DNA of 24,295 bases from a virus (Duplodnaviria > Heunggongvirae > Uroviricota > Caudoviricetes). The stretch lies in the IMG/VR virus record IMGVR_UViG_3300042259_000129; one strand, written 5' to 3'. Below, in pieces: positions 1 through 24,295 of this stretch. The position numbers and the translations under genes were made by a program. The notes below the pieces were generated by a model that did not search any database, was not told where the DNA came from, and saw nothing but the letters and a program-made list of their open reading frames with translations. The first letter of the stretch is position 1. Each line of letters opens with the position of its first letter.

Positions 1-745
1 ATTCTTTCTTTTTAGAATCATAAATCCTATTAATATCTAATTTGGTTAATTGAGCATCTACACGTTTGGCTAATTCATCTTCAGCCATTTCTAAACTCAA
101 ATAAACAACATTATGACCTTTCATCATCTGGCGAACAGCCATATTTACCATAAGGTTGGATTTTCCAGCATGCATCGCAGCTACAATTACTGAAAGAGTA
201 TAAGGAGGTAATCCACCATTTAGATATTCATCTAATTGAGGAAAATACGTGGGAAGTCTTTCATTTTCAGCGGAAAACATCCTTTTTAGTCGTTCAGACA
301 GATCACCCCAATAATCTAACCCAATTTGCTTCTTTAGAGTTTTTGTTAAAGCATTTTCAATATATTCCCGAGCTTTAGAAATATCTTGTTTCTTTTTAAC
401 AAGATCAACACTATCCATAATAGCGTATTTGAAAGCAGACTCCTTAAGTCATTTTTCAGTCTGCTCATATAGAAACATCTGATTCGATACTTCTACTTGC
501 TCAACGTCTTCTAAATATTTTTTAATTTCATTTGGCTTCTTAGCTGAATTAATAATGATATCTTTTGTAGGAAGTTCTATATATTGTTGATAATATTCTT
601 TTACAATAGTAAAGATTTCAGATGCTTCTAGATTTTCAAAAAATCGTTCTTCTGTTTCTGAAGACAACAGGGTACAAAAATGCTTGTCCTCAATGAACGA
701 TTTTAAAATGACTTTTTCCAAATACTCTTGAGATAAAACTGACAT
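1..745 (-). CDS. gp41: Replicative DNA helicase, T4 gp41/DnaB-like (runs off the window edge; one in-frame TGA=Trp at 449-451)
   Basis: The track ORF stops at TGA (TEK*), but the frame stays open to base 1: TEK[W]LKESAFKYAI...FPQLDEYLNGGLPPYTLSVIVAAMHAGKSNLMVN...VVYLSLEMAEDELAKRVDA (Walker A-like GKS and SLEM motif). GAGGAG RBS upstream of the ATG at 745. Confidence 0.93.
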
Positions 746-785
746 TAATTTTAGATTCTCCTCTTAAATATGTTCTTCTTATTCA

Positions 786-814
786 TATTTAATTTGGTGG
801 AAAGTAAATGTAAA
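786..814 (-). promoter_or_regulatory. Sigma70/T4-early-like promoter for the helicase (TTTACA-17-TAAATA)
   Basis: Same TTTACA box that recurs in intergenic gaps at 1174, 7241, 8643, 9209, 12125 and 16805; the -10 is imperfect. Confidence 0.45.
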
Positions 815-849
815 TATGGAAAAATAAGTTATTAAAATAATTAAACTTT

Positions 850-1020
850 TTAGAAATCTTAGAAATCCTAAGAAAATGATGTATAAAACATTACGTTTTT
901 TTAGTGGAATTCGAGATTTTCTCGTAAGGTATTGAAATGATTAGGAAAACTAAGATTTTGGCGGATTTCTAAGTTATTGAAATAATTAAGCTTTCGGAAA
1001 ACCCTCAGAATCTCGAGATT
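850..1020. repeat. Cluster of short direct and inverted repeats in the divergent intergenic gap
   Basis: TTAGAAATC tandem (850-867); CTTAGAAATCC (858-868) inverted at 963-973; CGAGA-TTT-TCTCG (912-924); palindrome AATCTCGAGATT (1009-1020); 17/20 direct repeat at 925 and 970. Confidence 0.6.
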
Positions 1021-1173
1021 TCCGGACTTATTTCCATATAGTGTAAAAATACCACCATATTTTTAACTTTCCCTGTTTACATCTTATCCGGAATAGGTTA
1101 GTTAATATATTAACTTGGTACGGAGGGTATAGTATATAGAATTATATTGATTGGTGAAACAATAAAATAATAG

Positions 1174-1202
1174 TTTACAAAGTATTTGAATTTTGATAAT
1201 CT
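1174..1202 (+). promoter_or_regulatory. Early-type promoter GTTTACA-17-TAATCT with extended -10 TG
   Basis: TTTACA 1174-1179, 17 nt spacer, TGnTAATCT; lies 36 nt upstream of the ATG at 1239. Confidence 0.55.
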
Positions 1203-1238
1203 GAATTCATCAAATCAATTAAACAATTGAGGTTTGAA

Positions 1239-1907
1239 ATGAATTACAAAGAATTGATCAAAATGGTTCATCCTGATCTGAATCCTAATATTAAGGATGC
1301 TGGGGTAAAAGTTACTGAGATCATGAAGAATAAGAATGACCCCTCTGAACTTATGAGGCTTGCCATTCAATGGGGATTGATCAAAGGAGAACAGAAAACT
1401 CAACATACATATCGTCAGAAAAAATCTGATAATCTTTGGGCAAAATTTGATTTTGCAAAACATAGCACAATATTTAAATCTGGAATGAGAGCTAGATTTA
1501 AGGATAATAGAGGTATTCACGAAGTTTGGTTTATTAAGTCTTATAAGAGTACAGTTTATTTTACTAATGGATCTGGTATATTTACAATTAATCGCTCGCT
1601 CCAAGATCTCGATGGAAAATTTGAAATTTTAAGATCTCGTATTAATGATCTCTATAGGTGGGAAATTAAATATTGGAAAGATGAACTTAAGAAGATTAGA
1701 AAAAGTACACCTAAAAATTCTTCTAAGGTAACATTTGAATCTTTAGGTATTGAACCCCATAAGTATTATATGGGTAAGTTTATCGTTACCTATCGTGGAG
1801 TGGAATATGAACTTTTTCGAACAAATGCTCGCTGTGCTTTTATCAATTATAATGGAGAAGAAAAGAGAATTCTCCTCAAGTCTATTACAAAAATTCGGAG
1901 GAAGTAA
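1239..1907 (+). CDS. Hypothetical protein with an N-terminal truncated J-domain-like HPD segment
   Basis: YKELIKMVHPDLNPNIKDAGVKVTEI resembles J-domain helix II-HPD-helix III. ATG at 1239 follows GAGG, preferred over the track TTG at 1227. Confidence 0.6.
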   Translation: MNYKELIKMVHPDLNPNIKDAGVKVTEIMKNKNDPSELMRLAIQWGLIKGEQKTQHTYRQKKSDNLWAKFDFAKHSTIFKSGMRARFKDNRGIHEVWFIKSYKSTVYFTNGSGIFTINRSLQDLDGKFEILRSRINDLYRWEIKYWKDELKKIRKSTPKNSSKVTFESLGIEPHKYYMGKFIVTYRGVEYELFRTNARCAFINYNGEEKRILLKSITKIRRK

Positions 1908-1909
1908 AT

Positions 1910-2434
1910 TTGAATTACATTTTTATTATTAATGGTTCCGGTACCTCGGGTAAAGATACAGTTGTTGATTTTGTTAGAAATAATTTTTCAAAATATTTTA
2001 ATATCTATAATGTTTCATCTATTGATAAAGTCAGAGAAGCTGCAAAACTATTAGGGTGGACTGGATCAAAAGATGAAACGGACCGGGAATTTCTCCATCA
2101 ACTTAAAATGATTGCAAGTAAATTCTATAATCATTCACTCCTTTATATGCTAAGTTCTTTGAAAGATTTTGAATCTCCCTATATATGTTTTTTTCATGTT
2201 CGAGAACCTAAAGAAATTGAAATCTTTAAAGAAAGTCTTTTGAACTCACCAACCCCTGTGTTTACAATCCTTATACAACGTAATAATAATAAAGTATTCA
2301 GTAATGATGCAGATTCTAATGTTAAAAACTATAGATATGATTATATTATTGATAATAATGGTTCCAAGTATGATCTTGAATGTAAAGTAGTTAAACTTTT
2401 TAATAAAATCTTAGAAGGAACATTTAATGGATAA
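1910..2434 (+). CDS. P-loop nucleotide monophosphate kinase-like protein (T4 gp1-like dNMP kinase family)
   Basis: N-terminal GSGTSGKDT P-loop, HVREPKE segment and C-terminal DYIIDNNG typical of phage dNMP kinases. Confidence 0.65.
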   Translation: MNYIFIINGSGTSGKDTVVDFVRNNFSKYFNIYNVSSIDKVREAAKLLGWTGSKDETDREFLHQLKMIASKFYNHSLLYMLSSLKDFESPYICFFHVREPKEIEIFKESLLNSPTPVFTILIQRNNNKVFSNDADSNVKNYRYDYIIDNNGSKYDLECKVVKLFNKILEGTFNG

Positions 2435-2447
2435 TTGAGAGCAAGAT

Positions 2448-2876
2448 ATGCATTTAGGAATAATTGAAAGAGCTATAGAAGAAGCTCGATCGTCGGAGTA
2501 TCATCCGTATAAGATGGGAGCTGTGGTTTTTAAGGGACCTCGAATATTATCGTCTGGACACAATGAAATTCGCGGTAATGGTAAAATTCACCCCAAATAC
2601 AAATATTTTGATAATACGATTCATGCTGAACAATCCGCAATTCTTAATTTAAAACATTGGAATAAAGCTAAGAATGCTGATATTTTGATTGTTCGGATAA
2701 ACAATTCAGGGAAGTTTTCTTTGGCTTACCCGTGCCCTATGTGTCAGGGATTTTTAAAATTTCTTGGTATTAATAAGGTTTACTTTTCTAATAGAAAGGG
2801 TAATATTACCTTTGTAAAGGGAAGAGATCTTTCAGAAGATAATTATGAAAATTCTTGGAAATTGGAAGGTAAGTAA
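2448..2876 (+). CDS. Zn-dependent cytidine/dCMP deaminase-fold protein
   Basis: HAE and PCPMC zinc motifs; MGAVV...GHN N-terminal motif; substrate not determinable from sequence. Confidence 0.85.
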   Translation: MHLGIIERAIEEARSSEYHPYKMGAVVFKGPRILSSGHNEIRGNGKIHPKYKYFDNTIHAEQSAILNLKHWNKAKNADILIVRINNSGKFSLAYPCPMCQGFLKFLGINKVYFSNRKGNITFVKGRDLSEDNYENSWKLEGK

Positions 2877-3070
2877 TGAAAGTATGTATTGAACTCTTGT
2901 CAGGACCATATCCCTATAAACAACCGACTCAAGAATCAATTCAAAAGAATATTGATGCTATTCAAAGAGTAATTGAGGGTAATACACATGTCAGTGATAT
3001 GGTGTTGCTGAATGATACCAAATCAATATTAGTTGCAATCCAAAAACATCTACCTAATGAGGTGTACTAA
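2876..3070 (+). CDS. Hypothetical protein (64 aa)
   Basis: TAATG overlaps at both ends, in operon. Confidence 0.7.
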   Translation: MKVCIELLSGPYPYKQPTQESIQKNIDAIQRVIEGNTHVSDMVLLNDTKSILVAIQKHLPNEVY

Positions 3071-3675
3071 TGAAAAAATGCGAATTTGAAATTTTACCCA
3101 GGCAATTTGGGAAGACAGCTTCGTTTATTTCTTTATATAATAAACTAAATCATAATTTACAACACCCCATTAATGTTGTAGTGCCAACACACCCATGTAA
3201 AAGGGTATATAATGATGCTGGTATCGATGTTTTTACAATTCAAGAATTTATTTACAACATAAGGTCCAATACTCGTGGTAGAATATGTAAATGTAGTAAT
3301 CTATTTTTAGATGAATTTTTTCTATATAATGAAACACAACAATACATTTTATATGATGAATATGTAAAATATGTAGAAGATACCGTCTATATTAAAACTA
3401 GTCCTGTTAGAAGATATAATAAAAAACTTATAGATCTTTGTCGTTATTTAAAACAAATTAGTAATTTATGTTTGGACTATATTGATATGGATGTTGAATT
3501 CCACGATACAGAGAAACAAAATGACTTTAAATATTTATATGGTAGTTTTTTAACAGACCCCAACACAACAATTTATTCTTATTATGATGACTTTAAAAAC
3601 AGGTTATCAGAAGAACAATTTAAAACCCAAATTTTTGGACAATTTTTTATTAGTGAGGATACTAAAACATGTTAG
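3070..3675 (+). CDS. Small terminase-like P-loop ATPase-domain protein
   Basis: PRQFGKT Walker A, LFLDEF Walker B, C-terminal EEQFKTQIFGQF; only 201 aa. Confidence 0.55.
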   Translation: MKKCEFEILPRQFGKTASFISLYNKLNHNLQHPINVVVPTHPCKRVYNDAGIDVFTIQEFIYNIRSNTRGRICKCSNLFLDEFFLYNETQQYILYDEYVKYVEDTVYIKTSPVRRYNKKLIDLCRYLKQISNLCLDYIDMDVEFHDTEKQNDFKYLYGSFLTDPNTTIYSYYDDFKNRLSEEQFKTQIFGQFFISEDTKTC

Positions 3676-5534
3676 ATAAGTTAAATTTAATGTGTGAAGA
3701 TGATATCATTGAATTGCTAAAAGATGCAGACAATGCATATTATAATTCTGAAACATCGATGTTCTCAGATGAATTTTATGATGAATTAAAAGATAAAGCT
3801 CAAATGCTTTACCCCGATAATGAATATTTTCAATCAGTTGGCGCTCCAGTTCCAACAAAATCTCAAAAGATTAAGCATGATTATGTTCTTGGCTCTCTAA
3901 AGAAGTTTAAAACCGATACAATTTCTTCTTGGATAAAGAAATTTTCAAGTGATGAATTTTTTTGTATTATGCCAAAACTCGATGGTGCATCTATTTTTGT
4001 ACGATATGAAAATGGAGAACTTGTTTTAGCAACGACTCGTGGGGATGGCCACTTTGGATTTGATATTACACATAAAGCTTTGAAGTTTCTCCCAAAGAAA
4101 ATCAAAAACAAAAACCGGGTCGATCTTCGCGGTGAATGTCTTTTAAACAAAAATATCTTTGCTTCTCTAGGATTTTCAAATACTCGCAATGGTGTTGCCG
4201 GTCTCCTTAATAAGGATGGTGTTGAAGGTTGTGAAAACATTGATTGTTTGTTTTATGAATATATTAATTCAACTAATGAATCTTTAATTGTTGATTTTAA
4301 TGAACTTACAGAAATGGGTATTGATGTAGTAGAATATCACCTTCTTTCAGAACTTAAAGTTGAAGAGCTTAAAAGTATTTTGGTTTCAATGAAGATTGAT
4401 TACTGTTATGATTTAGATGGTCTTGTTATTTGCCCAACAAATCATAAGCGAGAAAATGTAGAACGACCCGAGAATAAGATTGCGTTTAAAGTAAATTCTG
4501 AAGGAATTGAAACTGAAATTGATTATATTGAATGGAATGTTTCTCGAACAGGAAGAGTAGTTCCAATTGCAATTTTCAAATCTCCTGTGCCAATAGACGG
4601 TACAAATGTTTCTAAAGCCACTGCTCATAATGCTAAGTATGTTTTAGACAACAAGATTGGAATTAGTTCAAAAGTAAAGATTGTAAAATCTGGTGATATC
4701 ATTCCTCAGATTATTGAAGTAACAATCCCCGCTGCTAAAATGGATATGGCAAAGAATTGCCCTTCATGTGGATCTGAACTTGAGATGAAGGGCGTTGATC
4801 TTATTTGTAAAAATAAAAAATGCTATGAACAAGTAATTGGGTTTTTAGAATATTTTTTTAGAGTACTTGGTGCTGAAAATATTTCTTCTCAAACTTTTAG
4901 AAATCTCAAAGTTAAAGATTTAACTGAAGTTTTTGAATTAACAGTTGATAATATTATGAATAGAGATGGATTTGGAGAAACCAGTGCTTCAATGATCATT
5001 GATGAAATTCATAAGTCTATCAAAAATGTAAAGCCTGAAACTTTGCTTGCAGCAGTAGGTGTACCCTTTTTTGGTACAAAAAACACAAAGAAGTTTATTG
5101 ATTCTTTAGATAAATCTTTAACTTCGAAAGAAAAATTTGAAAGTATTTTTTCTCTTAATGAAAATCTATTTACAAGTATTCCAGGCTTTGGTAAATCTAT
5201 ATTCAAATCGGTTGTCGACAGTCTTGAAAACGTTGCTCTTGTTTATCGTATCTGTCAAAACTATGGTTTAACTTTTAATGAGGAAACTCTAAGTGAGGAA
5301 AGTTCCAATGTCGTAAAGGTAACAGTTACAGGAAAGGGCCCTGCTTCTCGCAAAGAACTTGAAAAGCTTTTTAAGGAACATGGCTTTGAAATTATTAATT
5401 TTTCCAATGAAACAGAAATTTTGGTGTGTGATGATTTAAATTCTTCTTCATCTAAAATGAAAAAAGCAAAAAAGAATAATATTAAAATTGTAACCTATGA
5501 GGAGTTTTTTAATGAATATCAGATGTCTATGTAA
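3669..5534 (+). CDS. ligA: NAD-dependent DNA ligase
   Basis: Domain Ia DNAYY...SDEFYDEL, adenylation motif PKLDG, RGE, AFK, SRTG, C4 zinc finger CPSC...C...C, C-terminal BRCT-like region. Confidence 0.95.
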   Translation: MLDKLNLMCEDDIIELLKDADNAYYNSETSMFSDEFYDELKDKAQMLYPDNEYFQSVGAPVPTKSQKIKHDYVLGSLKKFKTDTISSWIKKFSSDEFFCIMPKLDGASIFVRYENGELVLATTRGDGHFGFDITHKALKFLPKKIKNKNRVDLRGECLLNKNIFASLGFSNTRNGVAGLLNKDGVEGCENIDCLFYEYINSTNESLIVDFNELTEMGIDVVEYHLLSELKVEELKSILVSMKIDYCYDLDGLVICPTNHKRENVERPENKIAFKVNSEGIETEIDYIEWNVSRTGRVVPIAIFKSPVPIDGTNVSKATAHNAKYVLDNKIGISSKVKIVKSGDIIPQIIEVTIPAAKMDMAKNCPSCGSELEMKGVDLICKNKKCYEQVIGFLEYFFRVLGAENISSQTFRNLKVKDLTEVFELTVDNIMNRDGFGETSASMIIDEIHKSIKNVKPETLLAAVGVPFFGTKNTKKFIDSLDKSLTSKEKFESIFSLNENLFTSIPGFGKSIFKSVVDSLENVALVYRICQNYGLTFNEETLSEESSNVVKVTVTGKGPASRKELEKLFKEHGFEIINFSNETEILVCDDLNSSSSKMKKAKKNNIKIVTYEEFFNEYQMSM

Positions 5535-5712
5535 TGCACTAAAGGAATTTCGTCCTATTAAAACTAATAATCCCGTTACATATCAGTGCATGATTTGTAA
5601 GAAAATTTATCTTGAAAAGGACATCAATCTTGAAGGAAGAAATATTGTTGGTATTGAAAAAACAGATAATCCCTTTCTTTCATATGTAAGAAAACCTACT
5701 AAAAAGGATTAA
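5512..5712 (+). CDS. Small putative zinc-binding protein
   Basis: CLC and CMIC pairs; ATG at 5512 preceded by GAGGAG; overlaps the ligase end. Confidence 0.5.
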   Translation: MNIRCLCNALKEFRPIKTNNPVTYQCMICKKIYLEKDINLEGRNIVGIEKTDNPFLSYVRKPTKKD

Positions 5713-5715
5713 AAA

Positions 5716-5973
5716 ATGAAAGTATCTTTAGAAAGGTCTATTGGAATTCCTACAGTTCCATTTGCCCCTCTGAAGGTTACAGTATCACTAGAGGGAGATG
5801 TTGAGTCTCCCTCTGATATTGAAAAACTTTCAGAAAAATTAGATTCAATTATGGCTATTGAGATTATGAAAACCCTCGATGAATCGGTAACAATCACCGA
5901 TGTTGGATATAAGAAGTATCTCGAAGGTTTGAAGAATATGTATAATGACATTGTTAATGAATTGGAGAAATAA
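5716..5973 (+). CDS. Hypothetical protein (85 aa)
   Basis: In-operon ORF with AAGGA upstream; fills the gap exactly. Confidence 0.7.
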   Translation: MKVSLERSIGIPTVPFAPLKVTVSLEGDVESPSDIEKLSEKLDSIMAIEIMKTLDESVTITDVGYKKYLEGLKNMYNDIVNELEK

Positions 5974-5974
5974 T

Positions 5975-6751
5975 ATGAAAGTAACTCTAATTGGATATTC
6001 TACTCCAAATATAACACAAACTTATAGTGAGGAAGATTCCCCAGATAAAGTTGTGTACACTGCGTTAGCTCAATGTTATAATGATTCTTTTAATCCAATG
6101 AATAAGCAATATCCTGAAGTTGAAACAATGAAGAAAACTATTAAGCACGTACTTTCTTCTGGTCATCATTCTGTTGCTGAACATGTTTCTTTTACATTTC
6201 TAATTGAGGGTGTTAGTCGAGCATTAACACATCAACTTGTACGCCATAGAATTGCAAGTTATTCTCAAAAGAGTCAAAGATATGTAAATGAAAAGAATTT
6301 TACATATGTAACTCCATATACAATTCAAAAGAATAAGTTTCTAAATGAAACATATAACAATTTCATGAATAATATTATGGAATTTTATACAAGACTTACT
6401 AATAACGGAATCCCAGCAGAAGATGCTCGATTTATTCTTCCTAATGCTTGTACTACTAATATTGTTATGACAATGAATATTCGTTCTCTTGGAGAATTTT
6501 TTGCTAAAAGAATGTGTAAGCGTGCTCAGTGGGAAATTCGAGAAATGGCTGAAAAGATGTCTTCAATGTGTCGAGATATCGCACCAACATTTTTTAAAGA
6601 TAACAAGCTTGGATTTGCTGCCTGTATTCAAAATGGATTTTGCAAGGAAGCAAAATCTTGTGGTATGATGCCAAAGCTTTCAGATTTACAAAATGCTTAT
6701 AAGATTGTAGAAAATAGTAAAAAAGAAATGGAGGAAAAATTTAGTGTTTAA
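5975..6751 (+). CDS. thyX: Flavin-dependent thymidylate synthase
   Basis: ThyX motif RHRIASYSQKSQRY, GHHSVAEH, EDARFILP, RAQWEIR; start moved to the ATG at 5975 after GGAG. Confidence 0.96.
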   Translation: MKVTLIGYSTPNITQTYSEEDSPDKVVYTALAQCYNDSFNPMNKQYPEVETMKKTIKHVLSSGHHSVAEHVSFTFLIEGVSRALTHQLVRHRIASYSQKSQRYVNEKNFTYVTPYTIQKNKFLNETYNNFMNNIMEFYTRLTNNGIPAEDARFILPNACTTNIVMTMNIRSLGEFFAKRMCKRAQWEIREMAEKMSSMCRDIAPTFFKDNKLGFAACIQNGFCKEAKSCGMMPKLSDLQNAYKIVENSKKEMEEKFSV

Positions 6752-7235
6752 ATTTTGTAAAGTTCGTGATGTAAAGAGCCCCAATCGTGCTAATCCTACA
6801 GATGCAGGCCTCGACTTTTTCGTTCCAAATTGATCTAAAGAATTTGTTAATGATCTAAGGGATAAGAACCCTGGACTATATATTACCGAAGAGGGTATTC
6901 ATCTAGCTCCTCTTGAAAGGGTTCTTATCCCTTCTGGAATTAAAACATGGTTCCCTGATTATCATGCACTTATTGCTTTTGATAAATCTGGCGTAGCTTC
7001 TAAGCAGGGAATTACTCTTCTTGCAAAAGTGATCGACACGGATTATTTAGGCGAGCTTCATCTCAATCTTGTTAATGTTTCAAAAAATGAGCAAACAATT
7101 AAATATGGGCAAAAGATTACACAATTTATTCTTATCCCAATTAGTTGTAGTATGCCTGAGGAAATTGGTATTGATGAGTATGAGAAGCGAGAAACTTCAC
7201 GAGGCTCTGGCGGATTTGGTTCAACAGGAGTTTAA
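6744..7235 (+). CDS. dut: Trimeric dUTPase, 163 aa (in-frame TGA=Trp at 6831-6833)
   Basis: GTG start after GGAGG; DAGLDF (motif I) lies upstream of the TGA, and KSG, IDTDYLGE, ITQ and RGSGGFGSTG (motifs II-V) lie downstream in the same frame. Confidence 0.93.
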
Positions 7236-7240
7236 ACTTA

Positions 7241-7286
7241 TTTACATTTAAGAATATGGGGATTAGATTATTTTTATCTAATCCCC
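7241..7286 (+). promoter_or_regulatory. TTTACA-17-TAGATT promoter overlapped by an 11-bp inverted repeat (possible terminator or operator)
   Basis: Arms GGGGATTAGAT 7258-7268 and ATCTAATCCCC 7276-7286, 7 nt loop, followed by only TTTG. Confidence 0.55.
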
Positions 7287-7298
7287 TTTGGAGTTTAT

Positions 7299-7976
7299 AT
7301 GTCAAAAATTGTTTTATTTGAAGGTCTTGACAATTGTTTCAAAACTACTAATGTAAAAGCTCTTTTTAATTTTTGGAATAAACAAAACAAAACAGCTCAT
7401 GTCCTTCATTATTCAGGAGTCAAATCTATAAATTCTGAAGAAGCTAGAAAACTTTCAAAACAACTTTATACAGAGATGTTCGAAGCTTTTGAATATTTTC
7501 ATTCCAAAAACATTAATATAATTTGTGATAGATCACATCTTGGGGAAAATGTGTATTCTAGATATAGAGGGTATAATCCTTCATATCTATGGAAGCTTGA
7601 AGATCAATTTATGAATCATAAATTTTGGAATGATGTTTATTTAATTTTCCTTAGAGATAATATTGATAATACTCTTGAAAGAGATGATGGGTTATCACTT
7701 TCTACAGATAGAAATGATAAGATTTTTGAAAGACAGAAGTTTGAAGAAGCTGTTATGATAACAGAAATTCCTAACAAGAAAATTATTGATGTCACAAATA
7801 AATCTAAAGAAGAGATTCTAAATGAAATTTTGATCTTTTTAAAAGAAGATGATATTGAACAAAAGGCCATGAAAACCCTAGATACTATTATTGAAAAACT
7901 TAATTGTTGTAATGATGTACAGAGTAAAAAATATGATGAATCAGTATATGAAATTGTAAAACTTATACGAGGTTAG
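7299..7976 (+). CDS. Thymidylate kinase-like nucleotide kinase
   Basis: IVLFEGLDNCFKTT P-loop variant and ICDRSHLGENVY (DR motif). Confidence 0.8.
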   Translation: MSKIVLFEGLDNCFKTTNVKALFNFWNKQNKTAHVLHYSGVKSINSEEARKLSKQLYTEMFEAFEYFHSKNINIICDRSHLGENVYSRYRGYNPSYLWKLEDQFMNHKFWNDVYLIFLRDNIDNTLERDDGLSLSTDRNDKIFERQKFEEAVMITEIPNKKIIDVTNKSKEEILNEILIFLKEDDIEQKAMKTLDTIIEKLNCCNDVQSKKYDESVYEIVKLIRG

Positions 7977-7978
7977 AG

Positions 7979-8638: not shown

Positions 8639-8642
8639 TTTG

Positions 8643-8671
8643 TTTACATTATAGGGAAATTTGAATAAATA
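8643..8671 (+). promoter_or_regulatory. Early-type promoter candidate GTTTACA-17-TAAATA
   Basis: Recurrent GTTTACA box directly after the gp42 stop; imperfect -10. Confidence 0.4.
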
Positions 8672-8700
8672 AATTATTACTTAAACACATTGGAGTTTTT

Positions 8701-9192: not shown

Positions 9193-9208
9193 CTAAATAA
9201 ATTACTTA

Positions 9209-15332: not shown

Positions 15333-15335
15333 TTT

Positions 15336-16226: not shown

Positions 16227-16465
16227 TGATTTATTCATTAAATATGTATTCAAGAGAGCTATTAGAAGAAGCATATGATTCTCTTGGAAAAATTTATTTA
16301 AATTGTATCCCACATAAAAACGAACATATTACATATGAAAAGGATATTTATCTCGTGGAAGAGATTTTTTATAAACTATCAGGACAATCTCATGAGTCCG
16401 AAATTAATTTATATTGTTTATATGTAGGAAAAATAAATTCAACAAAAGAATTAATGAGAAAGTAA
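16226..16465 (+). CDS. Hypothetical protein (79 aa)
   Basis: TAATG overlaps on both sides. Confidence 0.7.
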   Translation: MIYSLNMYSRELLEEAYDSLGKIYLNCIPHKNEHITYEKDIYLVEEIFYKLSGQSHESEINLYCLYVGKINSTKELMRK

Positions 16466-16800
16466 TGGAAAAACAAACTATTTTTGATTTTCTCAATTCA
16501 ATCAATAACAAGAAGAAAATTGAGATCAATGAGAAGGATTTTTCTGGGTATATGGTAAGCTTATGGTTTAGTCATGCCCAAGATTGTATTGATGTAGTTA
16601 ACAGGATCAATCCCTATATCTTTAATACTCCTTCCAAAGCAATGTATGAATATTATTTTGATAAAATTTCAAAGAAGAAACGATTTATCAAATTTACGAA
16701 AAAAGAAAAAGATGAAAAAGCAAATGCAGAAAAGGAAACTTTTAAAACAATACACAATCTTTCTAAAAAGGAGATGAAATTATATAAAGATTTTTTCTAG
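16465..16800 (+). CDS. gp62: Clamp-loader small subunit (T4 gp62-like)
   Basis: FDFLNSIN...KKRFIKF pattern and position after gp44; ATG at 16465 by TAATG coupling. Confidence 0.7.
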   Translation: MEKQTIFDFLNSINNKKKIEINEKDFSGYMVSLWFSHAQDCIDVVNRINPYIFNTPSKAMYEYYFDKISKKKRFIKFTKKEKDEKANAEKETFKTIHNLSKKEMKLYKDFF

Positions 16801-16804
16801 TTTG

Positions 16805-16833
16805 TTTACATATAATATAGTTGAATATAATGT
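16805..16833 (+). promoter_or_regulatory. Early-type promoter GTTTACA-17-TAATGT
   Basis: Intergenic, upstream of the AAGGAG RBS of the 16859 gene. Confidence 0.5.
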
Positions 16834-16858
16834 TAATAAAAAATGTTAAGGAGATCCT

Positions 16859-17614
16859 ATGATTGTTAATGTAAAGAAGTTTAATAATTTTCTACGAAAG
16901 GCAACATTGAATTTTTCAATTAATTCTTTCAGTTGTGATATTAGTCCAGAGCGTGTTGTTTCTCGAATGATCACAAAATCTAATGATGCTATTGCGTGTC
17001 TGGATTTTGAAAATGACATTTTTAAGGAAAATAAGGAAAATCTTTCTTTTAATTTTATTGATCCAAATAGCTCTATTGTCCCTTATCTTAATCTTGTTGA
17101 TTCTGAGGAAGCTGAACTTATTGCAAGGGATGAAAAACTTATTCTTAAGAATGGTAAGCAGAAGTCAAATATTTTCTTTTGTGAAGAAATGATTCCTTCT
17201 AAGTTTGGCGCATCTGAACCCAAAGTGCAGTTTTCCCCATTTATCACAATTGATGTTAATGAAGAATTTCTAGAAACTTTCAACAAAATCAAAAAAATTG
17301 GAAACAAGTTCGGAAAAATCTATTTTACTGTAATAAATAATATTCTACAAATGGAGACCACCGATAAGAAAAACAAGTTCTCTAATGGTCTTTCCTTTGA
17401 CATTGCAGAAAATGTAAATTCTAAAGATATTTCAATTTGTTTTGATTTTGGTAATATGAATAATATGTTTGCTGTTCTAGATGATGATGTTTCTTACAAA
17501 TTAGATTTTATTTATGTTAAAGAAAAGGATATGGGTCTAATGACGTGCAAACGAGCTAACCCAAATTCAGAAAGCATTGAAAGTTACTATTTGACATCTA
17601 AGATGGAGGTTTAA
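16859..17614 (+). CDS. Probable sliding clamp (T4 gp45-like)
   Basis: 251 aa, predicted alternating beta/alpha pattern, adjacent to clamp-loader genes; assignment rests mostly on size and context. Confidence 0.55.
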   Translation: MIVNVKKFNNFLRKATLNFSINSFSCDISPERVVSRMITKSNDAIACLDFENDIFKENKENLSFNFIDPNSSIVPYLNLVDSEEAELIARDEKLILKNGKQKSNIFFCEEMIPSKFGASEPKVQFSPFITIDVNEEFLETFNKIKKIGNKFGKIYFTVINNILQMETTDKKNKFSNGLSFDIAENVNSKDISICFDFGNMNNMFAVLDDDVSYKLDFIYVKEKDMGLMTCKRANPNSESIESYYLTSKMEV

Positions 17615-17869
17615 GTGAAACTAATTAGAATTGAGTATATTTTAAACAATAACAATTGGAAGTGTAATGTTATTGCTAAAGATACTAAAGATGGAGTAAG
17701 TTTTTTAGAAAAATATCTGAGGGCACCCTTTAGTATTACATCAACTGAAGAAGTGTGTGATATTCATGGAATCAGTGATACTATGAAGGATAATTTTTTA
17801 AAGACTGTTGAAGCAAAGGTTGAAACAAAGAGTGAACCTAAGTCAAAGTTGGGAAGGCCAAAGAAATAA
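17615..17869 (+). CDS. Hypothetical protein with a basic C-terminal GRPKK tail
   Basis: GTG after GGAGG; last gene of the + strand block. Confidence 0.7.
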   Translation: MKLIRIEYILNNNNWKCNVIAKDTKDGVSFLEKYLRAPFSITSTEEVCDIHGISDTMKDNFLKTVEAKVETKSEPKSKLGRPKK

Positions 17870-17871
17870 GT

Positions 17872-17896
17872 AGGGGGTCATATGACCCCCTTTTTT
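17872..17896 (+). terminator. Rho-independent terminator between the convergent blocks
   Basis: Perfect 20-bp palindrome AGGGGGTCATATGACCCCCT followed by a T run. Confidence 0.85.
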
Positions 17897-17903
17897 ATAA
17901 TTC

Positions 17904-18461
17904 TTAGTTAACATTCTCAAGAGAGCATCAAAAGATAGTCTCTGCCATGACAGCCACTTCTACCCACTCACCAGTTTCCTCATCGAGGACCTCCTTCGTC
18001 TCGCCAGTATCAACAAGATAGGCTTCTTCAGGCAACACCATCTTCACATGGCTAAAGTAGAAACCCATAAAGTCACCAAAAAGAGCCGCACGGCCCTCAA
18101 GGATGTCTTCGTAGGGCACACCAGCATCGAGGTCACTCTGAATAAGCGCAGCAGCTACAGGGTGCATCGTACTCAGATCAGGCTCAATCCCCATCATCAG
18201 CGCACCAACAACAGGATCGGTAGCGAGGCCGTCAACTTCCCACGAAGAGATGTCGAAGGCTTCAGCGTGTTTAGCCTTAGCGTCTGCAAACTCTCCCTTG
18301 TAGAAGTGGATGCAGCGAAGTTTGTAGGTTGTGTCGTCCACGGTGAACACACCGCAATCCTGGGAGTTCTCCCAATGGATACCGTAAAGATACCCAGAGG
18401 GAGAATCTACACTCACTTTATAGTAGGCCGCAAAGCGCGGTCCTCGGTCTATGAAAGGCAT
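17904..18461 (-). CDS. Fibre-associated hypothetical protein (177 aa to the TGA at 17928; 185 aa to the TAA at 17904 if TGA=Trp)
   Basis: TAATG-coupled to the fibre gene; about 53% G+C on line 18121-18180; acidic; a chaperone or assembly role is only a positional guess. Confidence 0.75.
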
Positions 18462-21400
18462 TATGCCACCATCCTTGTTTCGATTTCGGTGTCGGACATG
18501 CCGCCCTTGTTGCTTACCATGACTCTGCGGAACCAGATTGGAACAGTGTTACCATAAGCGAGTCGCAGGTGGGTTAAGGTGTTAAAGCTACCATCGAAGG
18601 ATATCCAACTACTCCATTGGATAGCAGAGTTGATGCCGATGCGTTTATATCCAACTCGGAATTGTGTACCGTCAGCATTAGTTTGGATAAGTTTGATATG
18701 GCGTTCATAACGGTTCCACGAGAATCCTGCGACGTTTGTACCATTTGTCCCATCCCAATCTTTGACAATAACAGGAGTTGTATAAATATTGTCATACCCA
18801 TGTCCAAGAAAGCTGTTCCATGTAGAACCCGTGTTCGGGGCGAGGATGTTGGCCCACGTTGACATACCCAACCCAGCCAAATCCCCGCTCCCAACACCCA
18901 TCGTCACTTCAGCCGCCACCGTGCATGTAGCAGGTTTGAGTTTCTGGACGGAGATATTGTCAATGATTACTGTATTTCCAGTTGATCCATATAGATTACC
19001 AACACGTACATAACAAGAGGCTGACGTTGGCGTAAAACTAAATGTAATAATACCAGAGCCTGTCTGCGATATATTTTTATACTCACCACCACTTAATGTT
19101 GAACCCAGGCGAATATTAAGACTTCCAGGGTTTCCGCCAAGAAGTTCCACTGAGAAGATATATGTCTTCCCAACTTCTAGTGTTAATAGCTGATATACAT
19201 ATCCAGAATACGCATCACTATTTGTTATTGTTAACAGTCCATCGGATACAGTTTGGACGCCATAGTTGGTCACCGTCCACCCACTCACATCACTATCAAA
19301 CGTCCCATTCGTAACCAACTCCACCCCATCAGTTTCACTCTTCTCAAAGCACTGCATGAGAGGAGAGGAGAGGCGTTGGACGGAGATGTTGTCCCATTCA
19401 GAGTAGAGTCCATCACCCATGCCATAAAGTGTAATATAAAGGACTGACGACTCTGCTACAAAGTCATGTACATTAACTCCATCACTAGTAATTGACGCTA
19501 TTTGTGAACTACCAGCAGAATAGTACCCTAGTCTAATTTCTGGCGAAGCGGCTGTTGGAATCGTTACGCCTGTGAACCTATACTTTGCACCAACAATAAG
19601 GCTCACTGTCGTACTTGCAGCATATGCCCCATCACCAGCGTTACCAGACACATGAAGTTTACCATCAACTACACTTAGTATACCATAACTTACAGAGGTC
19701 CACCCATCAGTTGTACTATCGAAAGTACCATTATACACCAACTCCACACCATCAGGCTCTTCGGCCATATCGAAGTAGATACCGTTGTTGCCAGAGGTTC
19801 CAGCAGCGGAGGCTACGGTTGTTCCTGGGGGGACGTAGGGCATGGGGGCTGATGTGGCGGTGAGTTGAGGACATGTTATATAACAATAGAAGCCACCAGC
19901 ACCACCAGAAGAGTTAGGATAAATATAGGTCCGCAAAGAATTACCTACTGTAAATCCACTGATCGTACAGGATAATTCATACCAGCCATCATCTAATTCA
20001 ACCAAACCAAAAGTTCCACTGCCAGATTTAATGGTTATATTAAGGGTGTCCCAATTAAATCCTATTTGAACAACATTAGAGCGAAGTGTTGCGTCCCAAA
20101 ATAGCAGGTCTGTATTAAATGCAGTGCCTCTTTTGAGTTTAACACTAAATGTTGCGTTACTAGATGGAAAGGTGGCCACTGTCTGAAGACTGTATGCTCC
20201 AGTTGATAGGGATTCTGCCTTGAAAACAGGTGAGTTCCCAAACCTAAGGTTCGTAAGCTCATAATCTACTAAACCACCACCCCATAATGTTGAGGCAAGG
20301 TTTTCGCTACCAACCGCAAGCAAGTTCCCATAACTCGGCCCACACCACACACCCTTATCACCATGAATAGCAGGCACGTAGTCTGTTAGTTCGTTAACAG
20401 TGGTGAGCGGGGGTACGTACGGGGCGGTAAAAACTGTTGTTAGCTGTGGGTTTTGAATGCTAATTCCAGAGACACCATCCCCGAGATAATTTCTATTTGA
20501 TGCCCAATTGGTATCCTTTGCAACTCTAACATCAAGAACAATACTGGTTGCAGATGTAGCTACTCCACTTACATATACGGTAATTGATCCATCATTATTC
20601 CTTATAGACCTGAAGACAGGTGAGCCAGAGACGCTAGCCAATGCGCCAGTAATTAAATCCACAGACACAAAGTAAACGAGGCCGCCGCCATTCAAGCCAA
20701 CATACGCAAAATTTCTACCATTCGGTTTAATAGTAATACTGCCAGTATAACTCACGCCAATAACGGCTGTGATACCACTTGTAACATAATGAGCTTCGGC
20801 TAGTACTGATTCGGTAACTTTGTACCAATCCCCATCAGTGGTTATCGTCGCCCCTGTTTTGCTCCAAGTTGTAATGTCATTAGAGGTAATGTGGTTCGTA
20901 TACCCAGGCCCACTCCACCAAAGCCGCCCATCACCATTAAGGTCAGTAGGTTCATTCAGCCCAACATAGCTCCCATCTTCAGCATACATCCTGTCACTGT
21001 AAGACCAGTTAGGATCGGGACCAACAGCACTACGCTGCCCACCGTCTTCTACGCGATAGAGGAGCTTAACATCATCGAACCGTGTAACCTTCCCATACAG
21101 ACTATCGCTCTGGGGAATTTCAATCCACCACAATCCAATGTTCAAATATACTTTCTTAGGCTCATACGCATCCACAATACAGAAAGTGCCCTGCTGGTAG
21201 TCACCAACATTGGGAAGGTTCTGAGAACGAATGACAGTGTAGGGCATCCAATCTCTATCAATCTTACCCTGACTGTCTGCACGCACAACCTTGTCGGCGG
21301 CGGGGGAGGTAGAGGTTTCAGACTGATTGACAGCGTTGATCTGCGTAGTTGTTACGCCATGAGGATTAGCTGTGCTCGCAATGTGAGACTGAATGTTAGA

Positions 21401-21736
21401 GTTTGCAGGTTCAGCACCAACCTGAGAGTAGGTAACGCCATGAGGATTAGCTGTGCTCGCAATGTGAGACTGAATGTTAGAGTTTGCAGGTTCAGCACCA
21501 ACCTGAGAGTAGGTAACGCCATGCGGGTTACTGGTGTTTGCTATATGACTTTCAAAATCTGATATATCAGAAATATCTATACCCGCTGCTTGTCACCCAG
21601 TATCTGTTCCATAATATAAATGATTTATATCCTCGACATAAATCATTCGACCTTCATCAGTGGATTGTCATGTAGGAAGTGTAGACACCTTTTGGTGAAT
21701 AAACTTACCCTTCATTTCTATACCGTGAAATTTCAT
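18461..21736 (-). CDS. Long tail fibre / receptor-binding protein, 1091 aa (TGA=Trp at 21668-21670 and 21593-21595)
   Basis: True start ATG 21736 after GAGGA, in frame with track ORF 18461..21286; HIxxxxNPH repeats, two ELVxNGTFD...W...DNISVQ beta-sandwich modules, Gly/Ser/Thr-rich. Confidence 0.85.
21354..21523. repeat. Perfect 81-bp tandem duplication (two units plus 8 bp) encoding HGVTYSQVGAEPANSNIQSHIASTANP
   Basis: ACGCCATG recurs at 21354, 21435 and 21516 with identical intervening sequence. Confidence 0.95.
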
Positions 21737-21847
21737 CTATTTGTCCTCAAAAAGAAAGAAGTTAGAATTTCATTTTCGTGTTAACTTTTTAGGTTAAAAA
21801 TAACAGGACTTGGGGATCCCTCGAAAATAAAATTTTGATTATAAATT

Positions 21848-21855
21848 TATTTATA
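21848..21855 (-). promoter_or_regulatory. T4 late-promoter-like TATAAATA in the gap upstream of the fibre gene
   Basis: Exact consensus, intergenic, correctly oriented; chance occurrence is plausible. Confidence 0.3.
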
Positions 21856-21859
21856 AAAA

Positions 21860-22636
21860 TTAATACTTAATACAGGGAAGCAATGCAATGTTTCTTGGTC
21901 TTGTTTCAGTTCCTCCCGTGTATCCAATACAACCTGGATCACTTGCTGCTCTTTCTGCATCATCAGCATACAATCCCGGGGCATACAACTGAGGACTGTT
22001 CGAACCTCTATCATTGCCATATTGTGTATGTCTATGACTTTTTAGTTCATCACTTTGAAAACTTCCAAAGCTTCGCCCAGAATCAATTCCTCTACCAGCA
22101 TCTCAACACCTAATAAATTCGCCTCTAAGATCAGGAACCCCGAATGTTGTAGTTCCATTTCCCGCCCCAAATGTTGTTCCAATTGCAGAAAATAATGAAG
22201 AATAAGTAGTTCTTGAAACAATAGAGCCGTTACAAATTAAATATCCTACCGGAGCAGTATTTCTTGCAAAATAAAGAATGGCTCCAGGGGGGACTAACTG
22301 ATTTTGAATTAAATCAACAGTATCATGAGGGTCATTTGTATCCGCTACATGGGCATTAAATGTAGATAAAGGTGTTGCTCCAATTTGAACAGAGGTCACT
22401 TGATGAGGATTATTAAAATCATTAATGTGATTATTAATTTCATCAATAGCTGTGTCTACATCATCTGAAATAAGTAGTCGTACTCACTCAGTTTGAGATC
22501 CGTAATAAACAACACCACCCATTTCTGAGCTTATATAAACATATCGACCAATATCAGAGTCAACATCAAATTCTGGAAGAGCATCAAGTTTTTCCAGAAT
22601 CATCGGTCCATCCATTTCTATTCCATAAAATTTCAT
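21860..22636 (-). CDS. Tail collar-domain fibre protein, 258 aa (TGA=Trp at 22484-22486 and 22103-22105)
   Basis: PPGAILYFA...APVGYLICNG...LFSAIGTTFG...PDLRGEFIRC[W]DAGRGIDSGR...GGTETRPRNIALLPCIKY is the canonical collar domain; ATG after GAGGT. Confidence 0.93.
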
Positions 22637-22646
22637 TTCTTACCTC

Positions 22647-23684
22647 TTAAAAATAGCCAAAGATTTTAACAACAGCATTTGGATTTGATCCAGCTTTAAT
22701 CTTAACTTCATTTTCATCAATACTTTCAATTTCTGTTAATGTTAAAACTTTCTTTACATCCGTATCCCAACATGTTACAGAAGGGTATTCCTGATTCAAA
22801 TTGTGAACAATATTGAAAGAATATACTCCGCCACCTTCATCAGTCCATGCTGTAATAGTTTGGGTAAATGTAGAATTTGAAAATCTTTCATGAATATCAT
22901 AAATTGTTTTATTGCTTACAATTCTATTATAAACAACATCATCTGAGCTGGGATCTACCTCATATAGTCCATGAGCATAGCCTGAGGGAGCTGCAGATAG
23001 AGACATTGTTTCAAAAATAAAATTTCTATGATCTTCTCAACCTTTAGCAATTGTATTATTTAAAATCTTATTAAAGGTTGGATCCTCATTATAAGCATTA
23101 ACAGGTTGAAGATTGTGAGGATTTGTAGGATCAGGAGAAATCAATATTGAATTAAATACAGCATTTTTATGCGTTTGTCATCCATTTGCAAGAAAATTAT
23201 TAACAACTTTATTATATGTTTCATCGGTCTGTGATAAATCAACATTTGTTAAACCATGAATAGGAAGTCCATTATAAACGACATCATGGTTAGTATGCGT
23301 ATAAAAAATATTTGCTAAAGCATTACTAATAAGTTTATTTTTATATGTCGAAGATGTATCAAATTCATCTACACCCTCAACAAGAGGAAAAACATCAATA
23401 TAATCAATAATGCCGGAAGAAATGCCATCTCTTTCCCAAGCTATTTTAAATTTAGTACCCCTGGAATATCCAAGAATTGTATCTTCTTCATCTGCAACTC
23501 AAAATTCAAAATAACCATTGGATGTTGTAGTTAATTGGGGCGCCACATTGAGTGATGTTGTTAAATCCTCTGAAGTAAAAATATTAGCAGGTGTACTTGT
23601 TCCAGCTAAAAATACAGAAACACTAGCACCATTAATAGGCTGCCCTTCCTGATTTAAAAGAAATTGTCAAAAGTGATATCTCAT
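22647..23684 (-). CDS. Virion structural protein, 345 aa, with head-binding-like N-terminus and four internal repeats (TGA=Trp at 23667, 23499, 23178, 23037)
   Basis: GQPINGASVSVFLAGT...NGYFEF[W] N-terminus, repeated VD...YNK..N..A.G[W]..H units, C-terminal W...HNL module; ATG after AAGGA. Confidence 0.8.
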
Positions 23685-24295
23685 TTATAACTTCCTTATA
23701 GATACTCTATAGAATATTGTCATTGTAAAATTTTGAGATTTATAAATGTTTGAACAAAGAGTTTCAAATAAAACTTCATCCAAATCTGTCAATATCTCAA
23801 TTTTATTTATAGTCATTAGAACTTCTTTTGGCACATCTAATCTAAAATATATAAAATTTTCATCATTTCACATTTCAGTAATTAGACTTTCATAAGTCAA
23901 ACTTGTTAAATTATTTGACAATTTAAACTTTGTAAGTTTAAGAATATCTGTAAAAATAGGTGAACCTATTGCTACTAATACAGCATATCCGGAAATTTCC
24001 CTATCAAATTCAATAATAGTATTATTTTCATCTAATAGAGTTATATTCTTAGGATATATTTTTTTATTTTCATCATTATATATATTTACTAAAACACCCG
24101 AATACCCTAAATTGTGGTTTATATTTCAAACATTTGAAGTTGTATTATTATGAAGATATGTATATCTATCTATAATAATTTGTCCTGTTTTAATACTAGT
24201 ACTTACTTTATTTACTTCATCTAATTTTATATATGATGGAATAAACTCTTGTTTTTCTAAATCAAATATTTGTGTATAAACTTCTTTTACATTTA
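23685..24295 (-). CDS. C-terminal part of a virion structural protein (starts outside the window; TGA=Trp at 24126 and 23868)
   Basis: 203 codons open apart from two TGA; V[W]NINHNLG motif; its TAA abuts the next ATG. Confidence 0.8.

Follow-up and report, generated by a model that had tools for sequence, protein, structure and literature searches.

Does TGA terminate translation in this phage, and if it does not, which amino acid does it specify? The question arises because long reading frames in the 24,295-nt stretch of DNA analysed here (the window) fuse once TGA is read as a sense codon. We conclude, with a probability of about 0.9, that the DNA comes from an uncultivated wastewater myophage, T4-like and deeply branching, which reads TGA as Trp (table 4) and terminates translation at TAA and TAG alone.

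The window has 30% G+C and carries T4-type replication, nucleotide-metabolism and tail-fibre genes, including the T4 core genes gp41, gp39, gp52, gp44, gp62, gp45 and gp5.4 and those for collar-domain fibres. No terminase gene was found within the 24 kb. G001, a syntenic 165-kb relative from a different metagenome (CheckV, 69% complete; 31% G+C), codes for a T4-type DNA polymerase, major head protein, baseplate hub and terminase. A second relative, G002, spans 97 kb (CheckV, 35% complete; 23% G+C). As judged from the gp39 topoisomerase, the nearest cultured phages are Vibrio phage nt-1 and its relatives, at only 37% identity, and all 2,258 phage records matching gp39 are at most 60% identical to the window protein. 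The genes that bear in-frame TGAs, and the block in which several of them lie, are listed below; single positions are the lowest plus-strand coordinate of each triplet.

2–745, minus strand: gp41/DnaB-type replicative helicase, N-terminal 248 aa (3′ end beyond the window); TGA 449–451 (codon 99)
1227–17869, plus strand: replication/nucleotide-metabolism block, by PHROG assignments
6744–7235, plus strand: dUTPase (phrog_135 match, 9–163); TGA 6831–6833 (codon 30)
9286–10311, plus strand: SegE-like GIY-YIG homing endonuclease (phrog_314, PF19835); six TGAs, at 9433, 9628, 9721, 9973, 10117 and 10237
13695–14756, plus strand: glycosyltransferase (phrog_7162 match, 21–296); TGA 13785–13787 (codon 31)
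14756–15040, plus strand: gp5.4-type PAAR spike-tip protein (phrog_281 match, 1–94); TGA 14804–14806 (codon 17)
17904–18461, minus strand: 185-aa gene of the imported fibre cassette of 45% G+C, downstream of the fibre gene; TGA 17928–17930 (codon 178)
18461–21736, minus strand: 1091-aa tail fibre; TGAs 21593–21595 (codon 48) and 21668–21670 (codon 23)
21860–22636, minus strand: tail-collar-domain fibre protein, 258 aa (PF07484, phrog_523); TGAs 22484–22486 (codon 51) and 22103–22105 (codon 178)
22647–23684, minus strand: 345-aa fibre/virion protein; TGAs 23667 (codon 6), 23499 (codon 62), 23178 (codon 169) and 23037 (codon 216)
23685–24293, minus strand: large fibre protein, C-terminal 202 aa (5′ end beyond the window); TGAs 24126–24128 (codon 56) and 23868–23870 (codon 142)

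The block comprises genes for a dNMP kinase, a dCMP deaminase, an NAD ligase, a ThyA-like protein, the dUTPase, a dTMP-kinase-like protein, a ThyX-like protein, the topoisomerase II subunits gp39/gp52, the clamp loader gp44/gp62 and the clamp gp45, and its Trp codons are nearly always TGG. Altogether, 21 TGA codons lie securely in frame, in ten genes. The preliminary description had counted 20 in nine genes; all 20 were recovered, and the total rises with the codon at 17928–17930. We left out of the count the TGAs at 2436, 5930, 10268 and 13448, which lie at most 11 codons from the longest possible start; translation probably begins downstream of them. The ten genes are intact only when TGA is read through. 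Under code 11, the endonuclease is invisible (no plus-strand ORF of at least 50 aa), the gp5.4 gene is hidden, the dUTPase is called only as a 68-aa remnant (7029–7235) and the collar fibre falls into three pieces, while the glycosyltransferase is shortened to 13803–14756, the 1091-aa fibre to 18461–21286 and the 345-aa protein to 119 aa.

Conversely, TGA does not act as a terminator in any of the 30 genes of our model, which end in TAA (25) or TAG (5); the earlier tally of 29 native stops (24 TAA and 5 TAG) needed only this enlargement. The sole TGA near a C-terminus, in the 185-aa gene, is followed by seven conserved codons and then by TAA. Homologues of this gene in standard-code contigs (L023–L026) align end to end at 51–88% identity, have Arg (CGT) or Ser (AGC) opposite the TGA, and continue in frame through the conserved C-terminal tail. 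Moreover, if each affected gene is read as far as its last TGA, the 1,247 codons passed in total include neither TAA nor TAG; at the off-frame frequency of 5.75%, some 72 should occur (P about 1e-32). The affected genes in full, 3,279 codons, have neither TAA or TAG nor a frameshift, and none need be invoked, as had been stated. At the TGA sites within 4296–24295 there was no base difference in Logan contigs from four wastewater runs, a comparison of assembled contigs rather than raw reads in which the runs may share one sampling campaign; runs X1 and X9 gave long identical contigs over those sites.

Comparison of coding density across codes, which had been suggested as a check, gave the highest greedy ORF coverage with TGA as sense: it rose from 0.793 to 0.889 in the window, from 0.777 to 0.908 in the whole of G001 and from 0.608 to 0.909 in the whole of G002. 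Controls in which TAG or TAA was made sense gained less in all three; the exception was a 22-kb excerpt, L002, in which TAA-sense coverage was higher. That the recoding is genome-wide, as the preliminary description proposed, is not demonstrable from 24 kb alone, but the two relatives (165 kb and 97 kb) bear it out, having 279 TGA to 423 TGG and 239 TGA to 120 TGG, respectively.

The proposed assignment to Trp (code 4) over Gly (code 25) is supported by codon-level comparison with the relatives and with standard-code homologues. Opposite the window TGAs, G001 has eight TGA, four TGG and one Phe codon. In the reverse direction, every TGA of G001 faces TGG (nine) or TGA (eight) in the window, and those of G002 face eleven TGG, five TGA and a mixed remainder without Gly. 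Gly was found opposite none of the window TGAs among 13 aligned partners in G001 and 6 in G002. The window and its relatives exchange TGA for TGG, or the reverse, in 24 cases, which shows the two codons to be interchangeable between related phages. In addition, homologues that translate under table 11 have TGG-coded Trp at seven window TGA sites. In homologues, in-frame TGA aligns with Trp; exceptions include the sites of gp41 and gp5.4 and three in the endonuclease.

In the helicase, the phrog_19 match (residues 2–245) spans the TGA. T4 gp41 (PDB 8due), aligned to residues 11–243, has Tyr opposite it; G001 has TGG there and TGA in place of window TGG146, and G002 has TGA at both positions. 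The gp5.4 codon is TGA in G001; the best two homologues of known structure (PDB 9vyi and 4jiv) have Phe there. Both positions, the first within a TEK-W motif, had been taken for family Trp sites; because Tyr and Phe are found there, they are aromatic, not Trp, sites in the solved homologues. The TGAs of the dUTPase and the glycosyltransferase are kept as TGA in both relatives, and five TGG codons of the latter (18, 162, 214, 320 and 332) are TGA in G001. Among the virion genes, Trp occupies site 178 of the collar protein in 113 of 120 homologues, one of them from a bacterial chromosome; of 36 homologues aligned at site 51, 22 have Trp and 33 an aromatic residue. G001 has TGA at 51 and TGG at 178. 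In the 345-aa protein, W6, W62 and W169 are invariant (n = 18 homologues). All three are TGG in two standard-code contigs (L027 and L028), as is codon 216 in L028. G001 has TGA, TGA and TGG at codons 6, 62 and 169, respectively, together with TGA at window TGG codons 83, 280 and 306. The large fibre fragment matches the C-terminus of a 923-aa ORF in G001; opposite its codon 56, two G001 paralogues have TGG and G002 has TGA, and at codon 142 the two paralogues differ, one having TGA and the other a Ser codon. Two G001 paralogues of the 1091-aa fibre have TGA at codon 48 and Phe at codon 23.

The endonuclease gene, with a probable start at 9328, is inserted directly upstream of the topoisomerase II large-subunit gene, a location shared by homologues (P0002 and P0003) that translate under table 11. 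Of its TGAs, three fall on sites at which Trp prevails in homologues, sites 50 (Trp in 6/6), 230 (6/10) and 278 (7/8), at each of which table-11-translating homologues have TGG-coded Trp. Site 146 is variable, site 318 is His or Tyr, and site 115 is Gly in 6/10.

This last site, together with a Gly opposite collar site 178 in one solved collar-domain fibre, is what could be said for TGA as Gly (table 25), the code of Absconditabacteria and Gracilibacteria phages. Against the near-constancy of Trp at collar 178, the TGG-coded Trp at seven sites, the 24 interchanges and the lack of Gly partners in G001 and G002, we regard a Gly code as very improbable. We find it just as hard to credit that the frames are pseudogenes, products of assembly or sequencing error, or sites of selenocysteine insertion or leaky readthrough. 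Homing endonucleases often decay, and the one in the window, for which G001 lacks an orthologue, accounts for six of the 21 TGAs, yet it aligns with intact homologues over 96% of its length. Further against decay or error are the uninterrupted 3,279 codons of the affected genes, the retention of eight TGAs as TGA in G001, from a separate metagenome, and the identical sequence in contigs of four runs. The partners are Trp, never Cys, and the window has no Rfam match.

TGA as Trp is not evenly used. The 13 genes of the replication/nucleotide class (those of the 1227–17869 block plus the helicase at 2–745) have 2 TGA to 26 TGG, versus 11 to 4 in the virion genes of the window (Fisher p = 1.4e-5), and G001 shows the same partition, 11 to 121 versus 76 to 50 (p = 1e-19). 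At the level of single G001 genes, the TGA/TGG counts are 0/11 for the DNA polymerase, 7/0 for the baseplate hub and 7/4 for the terminase. TGA thus makes up 73–86% of Trp codons in virion genes and the homing endonuclease and about 7% in replication/nucleotide-metabolism genes, an approximately 10-fold depletion in replication relative to virion genes. Codons for Lys, Glu, Gln and Leu show no difference in A/G ratio between the classes, with an A-ending fraction of 0.6–0.8 in G001. In virion genes and the endonuclease, TGA is as strongly preferred to TGG as A-ending codons are to G-ending ones in other two-fold pairs, and so is neutral there; its depletion in replication genes is in keeping with the published model of a late-gene code switch in a host that uses the standard code. 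TGA nevertheless occurs in essential early genes, the helicase and dUTPase of all three phages and the topoisomerase and ThyX-like genes of G002, and must therefore be partly readable early in infection. The base following in-frame TGAs showed no bias of the kind expected from release-factor competition (p = 0.46).

Both TGAs of the 1091-aa fibre lie in its AT-rich native N-terminus, and the C-terminal part, of 45% G+C, has 24 TGG and no TGA. Residues 166–1091 are 45–71% identical to fibres of standard-code phages of 42–46% G+C, and the fibre tip cassette is common to podophages of this kind, whose terminase and portal resemble those of the Vibrio phage ICP2 group. The imported cassette has so far acquired one TGA.

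Taken with the codon partition, these observations lead us to infer that the host probably uses the standard code and that TGA decoding becomes efficient only after the onset of infection. Infection would then begin before TGA is efficiently decoded, and the TGA-rich late genes and the homing endonuclease would be held back until it is. The decoder would most likely be a phage tRNA-Trp with anticodon UCA, encoded elsewhere in the genome: the window has no tRNA and matched no Rfam family, and neither a tRNA(UCA) nor an RF-1 domain nor a class-Ib tRNA synthetase was found in the incomplete G001 (165 kb) and G002 (97 kb). Less likely, though conceivable, is that TGA is read as Trp without a canonical phage tRNA(UCA), an unrecognised phage function switching it from stop to sense during infection, for example by modifying a host or phage tRNA-Trp(CCA) or by inactivating release factor 2. 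Such a switch, if real, would explain the lack of a decoder in about 290 kb of three genomes, the presence of tRNA-Trp(CCA) in G002 and the approximately 10-fold avoidance of TGA by early genes.

A host that itself reads TGA as Trp, with the phage merely matching a table-4 bacterium and driving no code change, is unlikely. Most cultured table-4 phages do infect Mycoplasma or Spiroplasma (PMC11210395). A native table-4 host would also accord with the lack of a suppressor tRNA, RF1 or TrpRS in the 24, 165 and 97 kb of this lineage, with the TGAs in early essential genes and with the absence of a +4 context bias. It would not, however, impose a 10-fold depletion of TGA in replication genes while leaving other A/G pairs unchanged. 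Moreover, the receptor-binding cassette is one found in standard-code podophages related to gamma-proteobacteria phages, G001 codes for a gp5-type baseplate hub/lysozyme family protein, and, among free-living bacteria, those known to use table 4 are wall-less Mollicutes.

A standard-code host with a delayed switch to TGA decoding therefore remains our preferred reading, and the consequences for annotation follow from the recoding itself. The default table loses or cuts ten genes, among them those for the helicase, dUTPase, spike tip and homing endonuclease and most tail-fibre genes, so that annotation, host-range inference and protein clustering of this lineage must use table 4. A T4-type lineage is now added to the recoded phages, and since few phages have an infection schedule as well understood as the T4 type, stop-to-sense timing of late genes becomes directly testable. 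G001, G002 and the imported fibre cassette of the window also form a graded series for studying codon capture.

In gene content and local order (gp41, gp39/gp52, gp44/gp62/gp45, gp5.4 and collar-domain fibres) the lineage resembles T4 and T4-type phages, and, as in T4, a Seg-type GIY-YIG endonuclease sits between essential genes; T4, however, uses the standard genetic code. Stop-codon recoding itself is already described in phages, as the preliminary description recognised (bioRxiv 10.1101/2021.08.26.457843; PMC11210395), and the window clearly adds a further case, from a T4-like lineage. Borges et al. reported TGA-to-Trp (code 4) gut phages such as the 'Agate' and 'Jade' clades (bioRxiv 10.1101/2021.08.26.457843), and Cook et al. 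found that table 4 raises coding capacity from 78.0% to 90.4% (PMC11210395); suppressor tRNAs were found in 35% and 15% of recoded phages, respectively, in these two studies. As in 'Agate' and 'Jade', TGA here aligns with Trp, is never a terminator, piles up in structural genes and is rare in those for replication; the genomes likewise exceed 100 kb and are AT-rich, and many members of those clades lack a detectable suppressor tRNA. Unlike those clades as described, the present lineage is T4-like and comes from wastewater rather than the gut, and an RF1/TrpRS 'code-change operon' was not found in the window or its two partial relatives. Mycoplasma and Spiroplasma table-4 phages also read TGA as Trp and need no phage suppressor tRNA (PMC11210395). 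They match the code of their hosts, and a difference between gene classes would not be expected in them, whereas early genes here strongly avoid TGA and the fibre cassette is indicative of hosts that standard-code phages infect. Another parallel is with TAG-to-Gln (code 15) crAss-like and Lak phages, in which the stop is reassigned mainly in late genes and temporal control of late and lytic functions has been proposed (PMC9523058; PMC7886860). Those phages differ in codon and amino acid, and code 15 has been validated by metaproteomics (PMC9523058), whereas the reassignment of TGA in this T4-like lineage is known from sequence.

Gene identities were assigned by PHROG and Pfam searches run on table-4 translations of the window, that is, with TGA read as Trp. 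These searches identified a T4-type gene set with the following organization:

2-745, minus strand: gp41/DnaB helicase
1227-17869, plus strand: replication and nucleotide-metabolism block, with a dNMP kinase, a dCMP deaminase, an NAD-dependent ligase, a ThyA-like enzyme, a dUTPase, a dTMP-kinase-like and a ThyX-like enzyme, and further with topoisomerase II gp39 and gp52, a glycosyltransferase, gp5.4 PAAR, the clamp loader gp44/gp62 and the clamp gp45
17904-24293, minus strand: tail-fibre cluster

The 24,295 bp have a G+C content of about 30%, except for a stretch of 45% at 18-21.3 kb. The gp39 protein is only 37% identical to those of the nearest cultured phages (Vibrio phage nt-1 group and Morganella phage MP1), and matches at the DNA level are marginal. 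At least 13 wastewater metagenome runs contain the window sequence (99-100% of sampled words); one exact 40-mer taken from it is absent from IMG/VR, and an Rfam search of the window returned no matches.

Reading TGA as a stop splits the helicase, cuts the dUTPase to 68 aa, leaves 9193-10282 (1.1 kb) without a plus-strand ORF of at least 50 aa, removes the N-termini of the glycosyltransferase and of the fibre, eliminates the PAAR gene and breaks three fibre genes into fragments. Reading TGA as sense restores every affected gene to one frame, terminated by TAA or TAG. Secure in-frame TGAs number 21, spread over ten genes, with those at 2436, 5930, 10268 and 13448, near doubtful starts, left out of the count; the terminators of the window are 25 TAA and 5 TAG. 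The preliminary description, with 20 TGAs in nine genes and 24 TAA plus 5 TAG stops, was therefore essentially reproduced. The additional TGA (17928-17930) lies 7 codons ahead of a TAA, and four standard-code homologues have Arg (CGT) or Ser (AGC) opposite it. Because their alignment crosses this codon and continues into the conserved C-terminal tail, the TGA is read through. The codons that precede the last TGA of their gene, 1,247 in all, include no TAA or TAG, against about 72 expected (P ~1e-32). The TGA sites within 4296-24295 showed zero differences in the contigs of four runs, which are assemblies and not raw reads.

Coding density was measured by a simple greedy ORF cover under table 11 (the standard code) or with TGA, TAG or TAA as sense. 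We included two relatives, found in IMG/VR by a gp39 search and then retrieved whole: G001 (164,754 bp, 31% G+C), which shows synteny with the window and has a gp39 85% identical to its counterpart there, and G002 (96,884 bp, 23% G+C), whose gp39 is 58% identical. The highest cover was obtained with TGA as sense in all three.

Greedy ORF cover under alternative codes
Sequence Table 11 TGA sense TAG sense TAA sense
Window 0.793 0.889 0.827 0.851
G001 0.777 0.908 0.818 0.856
G002 0.608 0.909 0.626 0.797

The most direct evidence on the amino acid at TGA is the codon-by-codon comparison with these two relatives. Window TGAs are partnered in G001 by 8 TGA, 4 TGG, 1 Phe and 1 gap, and the doubtful TGA at 2436 has Asn opposite. 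Conversely, G001 TGAs face 9 TGG and 8 TGA codons in the window, and those of G002 face 11 TGG, 5 TGA and, for the remainder, scattered residues. Neither Gly nor Cys was found as a TGA partner in this comparison.

Wider sets of homologues were examined at individual codon positions. Trp is invariant at sites 6, 62 and 169 among 18 homologues of the 345-aa fibre protein, and two of these, on contigs read with table 11 (L027 and L028), have TGG at all three sites, L028 also at 216. The collar-domain protein has Trp at site 178 in 113 of 120 homologues, one of bacterial-chromosome origin, and Trp or an aromatic residue at site 51 in 33 of 36. Sites 50, 230 and 278 of the GIY-YIG endonuclease are Trp in most homologues, including two that translate under table 11 (P0002 and P0003); site 318 is His or Tyr, site 146 is variable, and 6 of 10 homologues have Gly at site 115. 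Codon 99 of gp41 is Tyr in T4, codon 17 of gp5.4 is Phe in two solved homologues, and the PDB alignments stopped short of dUTPase site 30. The earlier proposal that the TGAs fall on family Trp sites is supported overall, but the gp41 and gp5.4 positions are aromatic, and not Trp, in the solved homologues. Its preference for Trp over Gly is borne out by the TGA/TGG interchange with the relatives. Since just one of the 21 sites (endonuclease 115) is of Gly type, table 25, in which TGA is Gly, is unsupported.

The use of TGA depends on gene class. The 13 replication and nucleotide-metabolism genes of the window contain 2 TGA and 26 TGG, against 11 TGA and 4 TGG in the virion genes (PAAR, three fibre genes and the native fibre N-terminus; Fisher p = 1.4e-5); the endonuclease has 6 TGA and 1 TGG. 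Both classes have the same proportion of A-ending codons for Lys, Glu, Gln and Leu (TTA/TTG), 0.61-0.84, and therefore the class difference is specific to TGA. In G001, 11 TGA and 121 TGG are found in the minus-strand block at 115-155 kb, which includes the DNA polymerase and RNA ligases, and 76 TGA and 50 TGG in the plus-strand block at 50-80 kb, with baseplate hub, tail and adaptor genes among its members (p = 1e-19). The same contrast is seen in G002, where TGA is more frequent overall. An exception among the late genes is that for the G001 major head protein (15184-16425, L009), with 0 TGA and 4 TGG; the other G001 virion genes, unlike this one, are mostly TGA-rich. TGA may be avoided here, in the late gene with the highest expression. 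We counted 7 copies of the T4 late-promoter octamer TATAAATA in the window, a non-significant excess over the 4.7 expected; those at 9301, 21848 and 23804 are only suggestive, the first of them (9301-9308) lying 27 nt ahead of the endonuclease ATG (9328).

We found no tRNA gene in the window, seven in G001 (Arg, Met, Pro, Thr, Tyr, Leu and Ala) and three in a row in G002, Leu(UAA), Trp(CCA) and Asn(GUU), at 55378-55642 (L020 15378-15642), none with a UCA anticodon. Under relaxed ARAGORN settings that allowed introns and used an 80% threshold, the dozens to hundreds of calls were of low quality, and none was a credible tRNA(UCA); Infernal, run with the tRNA model up to an E-value of 10, gave no further tRNA. 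Neither an RF-1 domain nor a class-Ib synthetase gene was found in G001 or G002, and a protein from the end of G001, used to extend it, matched G001 alone. The classical Hirsh UGA suppressor carries a U11:A24 D-stem pair; the tRNA-Trp(CCA) of G002 has C11:G24 instead. It is puzzling that G002, with 239 TGA vs 120 TGG the relative in which recoding has gone furthest, retains this TGG-reading tRNA. The nucleotide at +4 showed no difference between in-frame TGA, TGG and background (p = 0.46), a result that does not tell the host alternatives apart. The helicase and the dUTPase contain TGA in all three phages, and some decoding must therefore occur early in infection.

A host that natively uses table 4, with the phage simply following, seems improbable to us. 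The absence of a decoder is weak evidence, because both relatives are fragments (CheckV completeness 69% for G001 and 35% for G002) and published surveys found an opal suppressor in just 15-35% of table-4 phages (10.1101/2021.08.26.457843; PMC11210395). We favour, with a probability of about 0.7, a standard-code host in which the phage drives a switch of TGA reading. A 45% G+C cassette (17904-21240, minus strand), coding for the last ~925 aa of the fibre and for the next gene (185 aa), is embedded in this 30% G+C phage. Its homologues (45-88% aa identity) lie in IMG/VR podophage contigs (L023-L026) that are 42-46% G+C throughout and free of in-frame TGA, and whose terminase and portal regions resemble those of the Vibrio phage ICP2 group and other proteobacterial phages. 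That a receptor-binding cassette is common to both may hint at a common, standard-code host. No close relative of the cassette was found among 185,579 prokaryote genomes, and its matches to cultured phages are only weak.

All base variants listed for four wastewater runs fall between 18,093 and 21,161, as do most contig breaks, 9 of the 12 listed 'skips' (210-505 bp) and raised depth. The cassette has the look of a receptor-binding module that is hypervariable and exchanged.

Several other loci deserve mention. The SegE-like endonuclease (9286-10311) lies directly upstream of the gene for the topoisomerase II large subunit and is absent from G001, and its homologues P0003 and P0002 occupy the corresponding position in two further phage contigs, of standard code (L032 3001-4038; L033 1036-1812); this shared position, together with the absence from G001, suggests that gp39 has a homing site at its start. 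The 481 bp that separate the helicase from the divergently oriented plus-strand block (746-1226) are without genes; this region has five copies in G001 (72-76% identity, near 3.7, 27.7, 52.7, 100.4 and 120.4 kb), and one Logan contig ends within it, near 1135. Nucleotide-metabolism genes are dense at 1910-8638 and 13695-14756, glycosyltransferase included, and this set could form a modified-base pathway comparable to T4 hydroxymethylation/glucosylation. Other sequence takes the place of the ThyA-like gene (5945-6751) in G001.

Stop-codon-recoded phages are described, as already recognized in the preliminary description, and TGA-to-Trp recoding in phages is established (10.1101/2021.08.26.457843; PMC11210395). 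Full-length table-4 calls for relatives of the window genes are already in the protein collection, and thus current gene callers handle recoding. A full-text search of an incomplete collection found no paper on a recoded T4-like phage. The window adds three things: TGA recoding in a T4-type lineage is cleanly demonstrated at codon level; the partition between early and late genes is shown by a strong control to concern TGA specifically; and an imported standard-code cassette is present, so far with a single acquired TGA. The same class pattern in TGA-recoded phages has been read as control of late/lytic genes in standard-code hosts (Borges et al., 10.1101/2021.08.26.457843), and the density shift in the window and its relatives nearly equals that of table-4 gut phages, in which coding capacity rises from 78.0% to 90.4% (Cook et al., PMC11210395).
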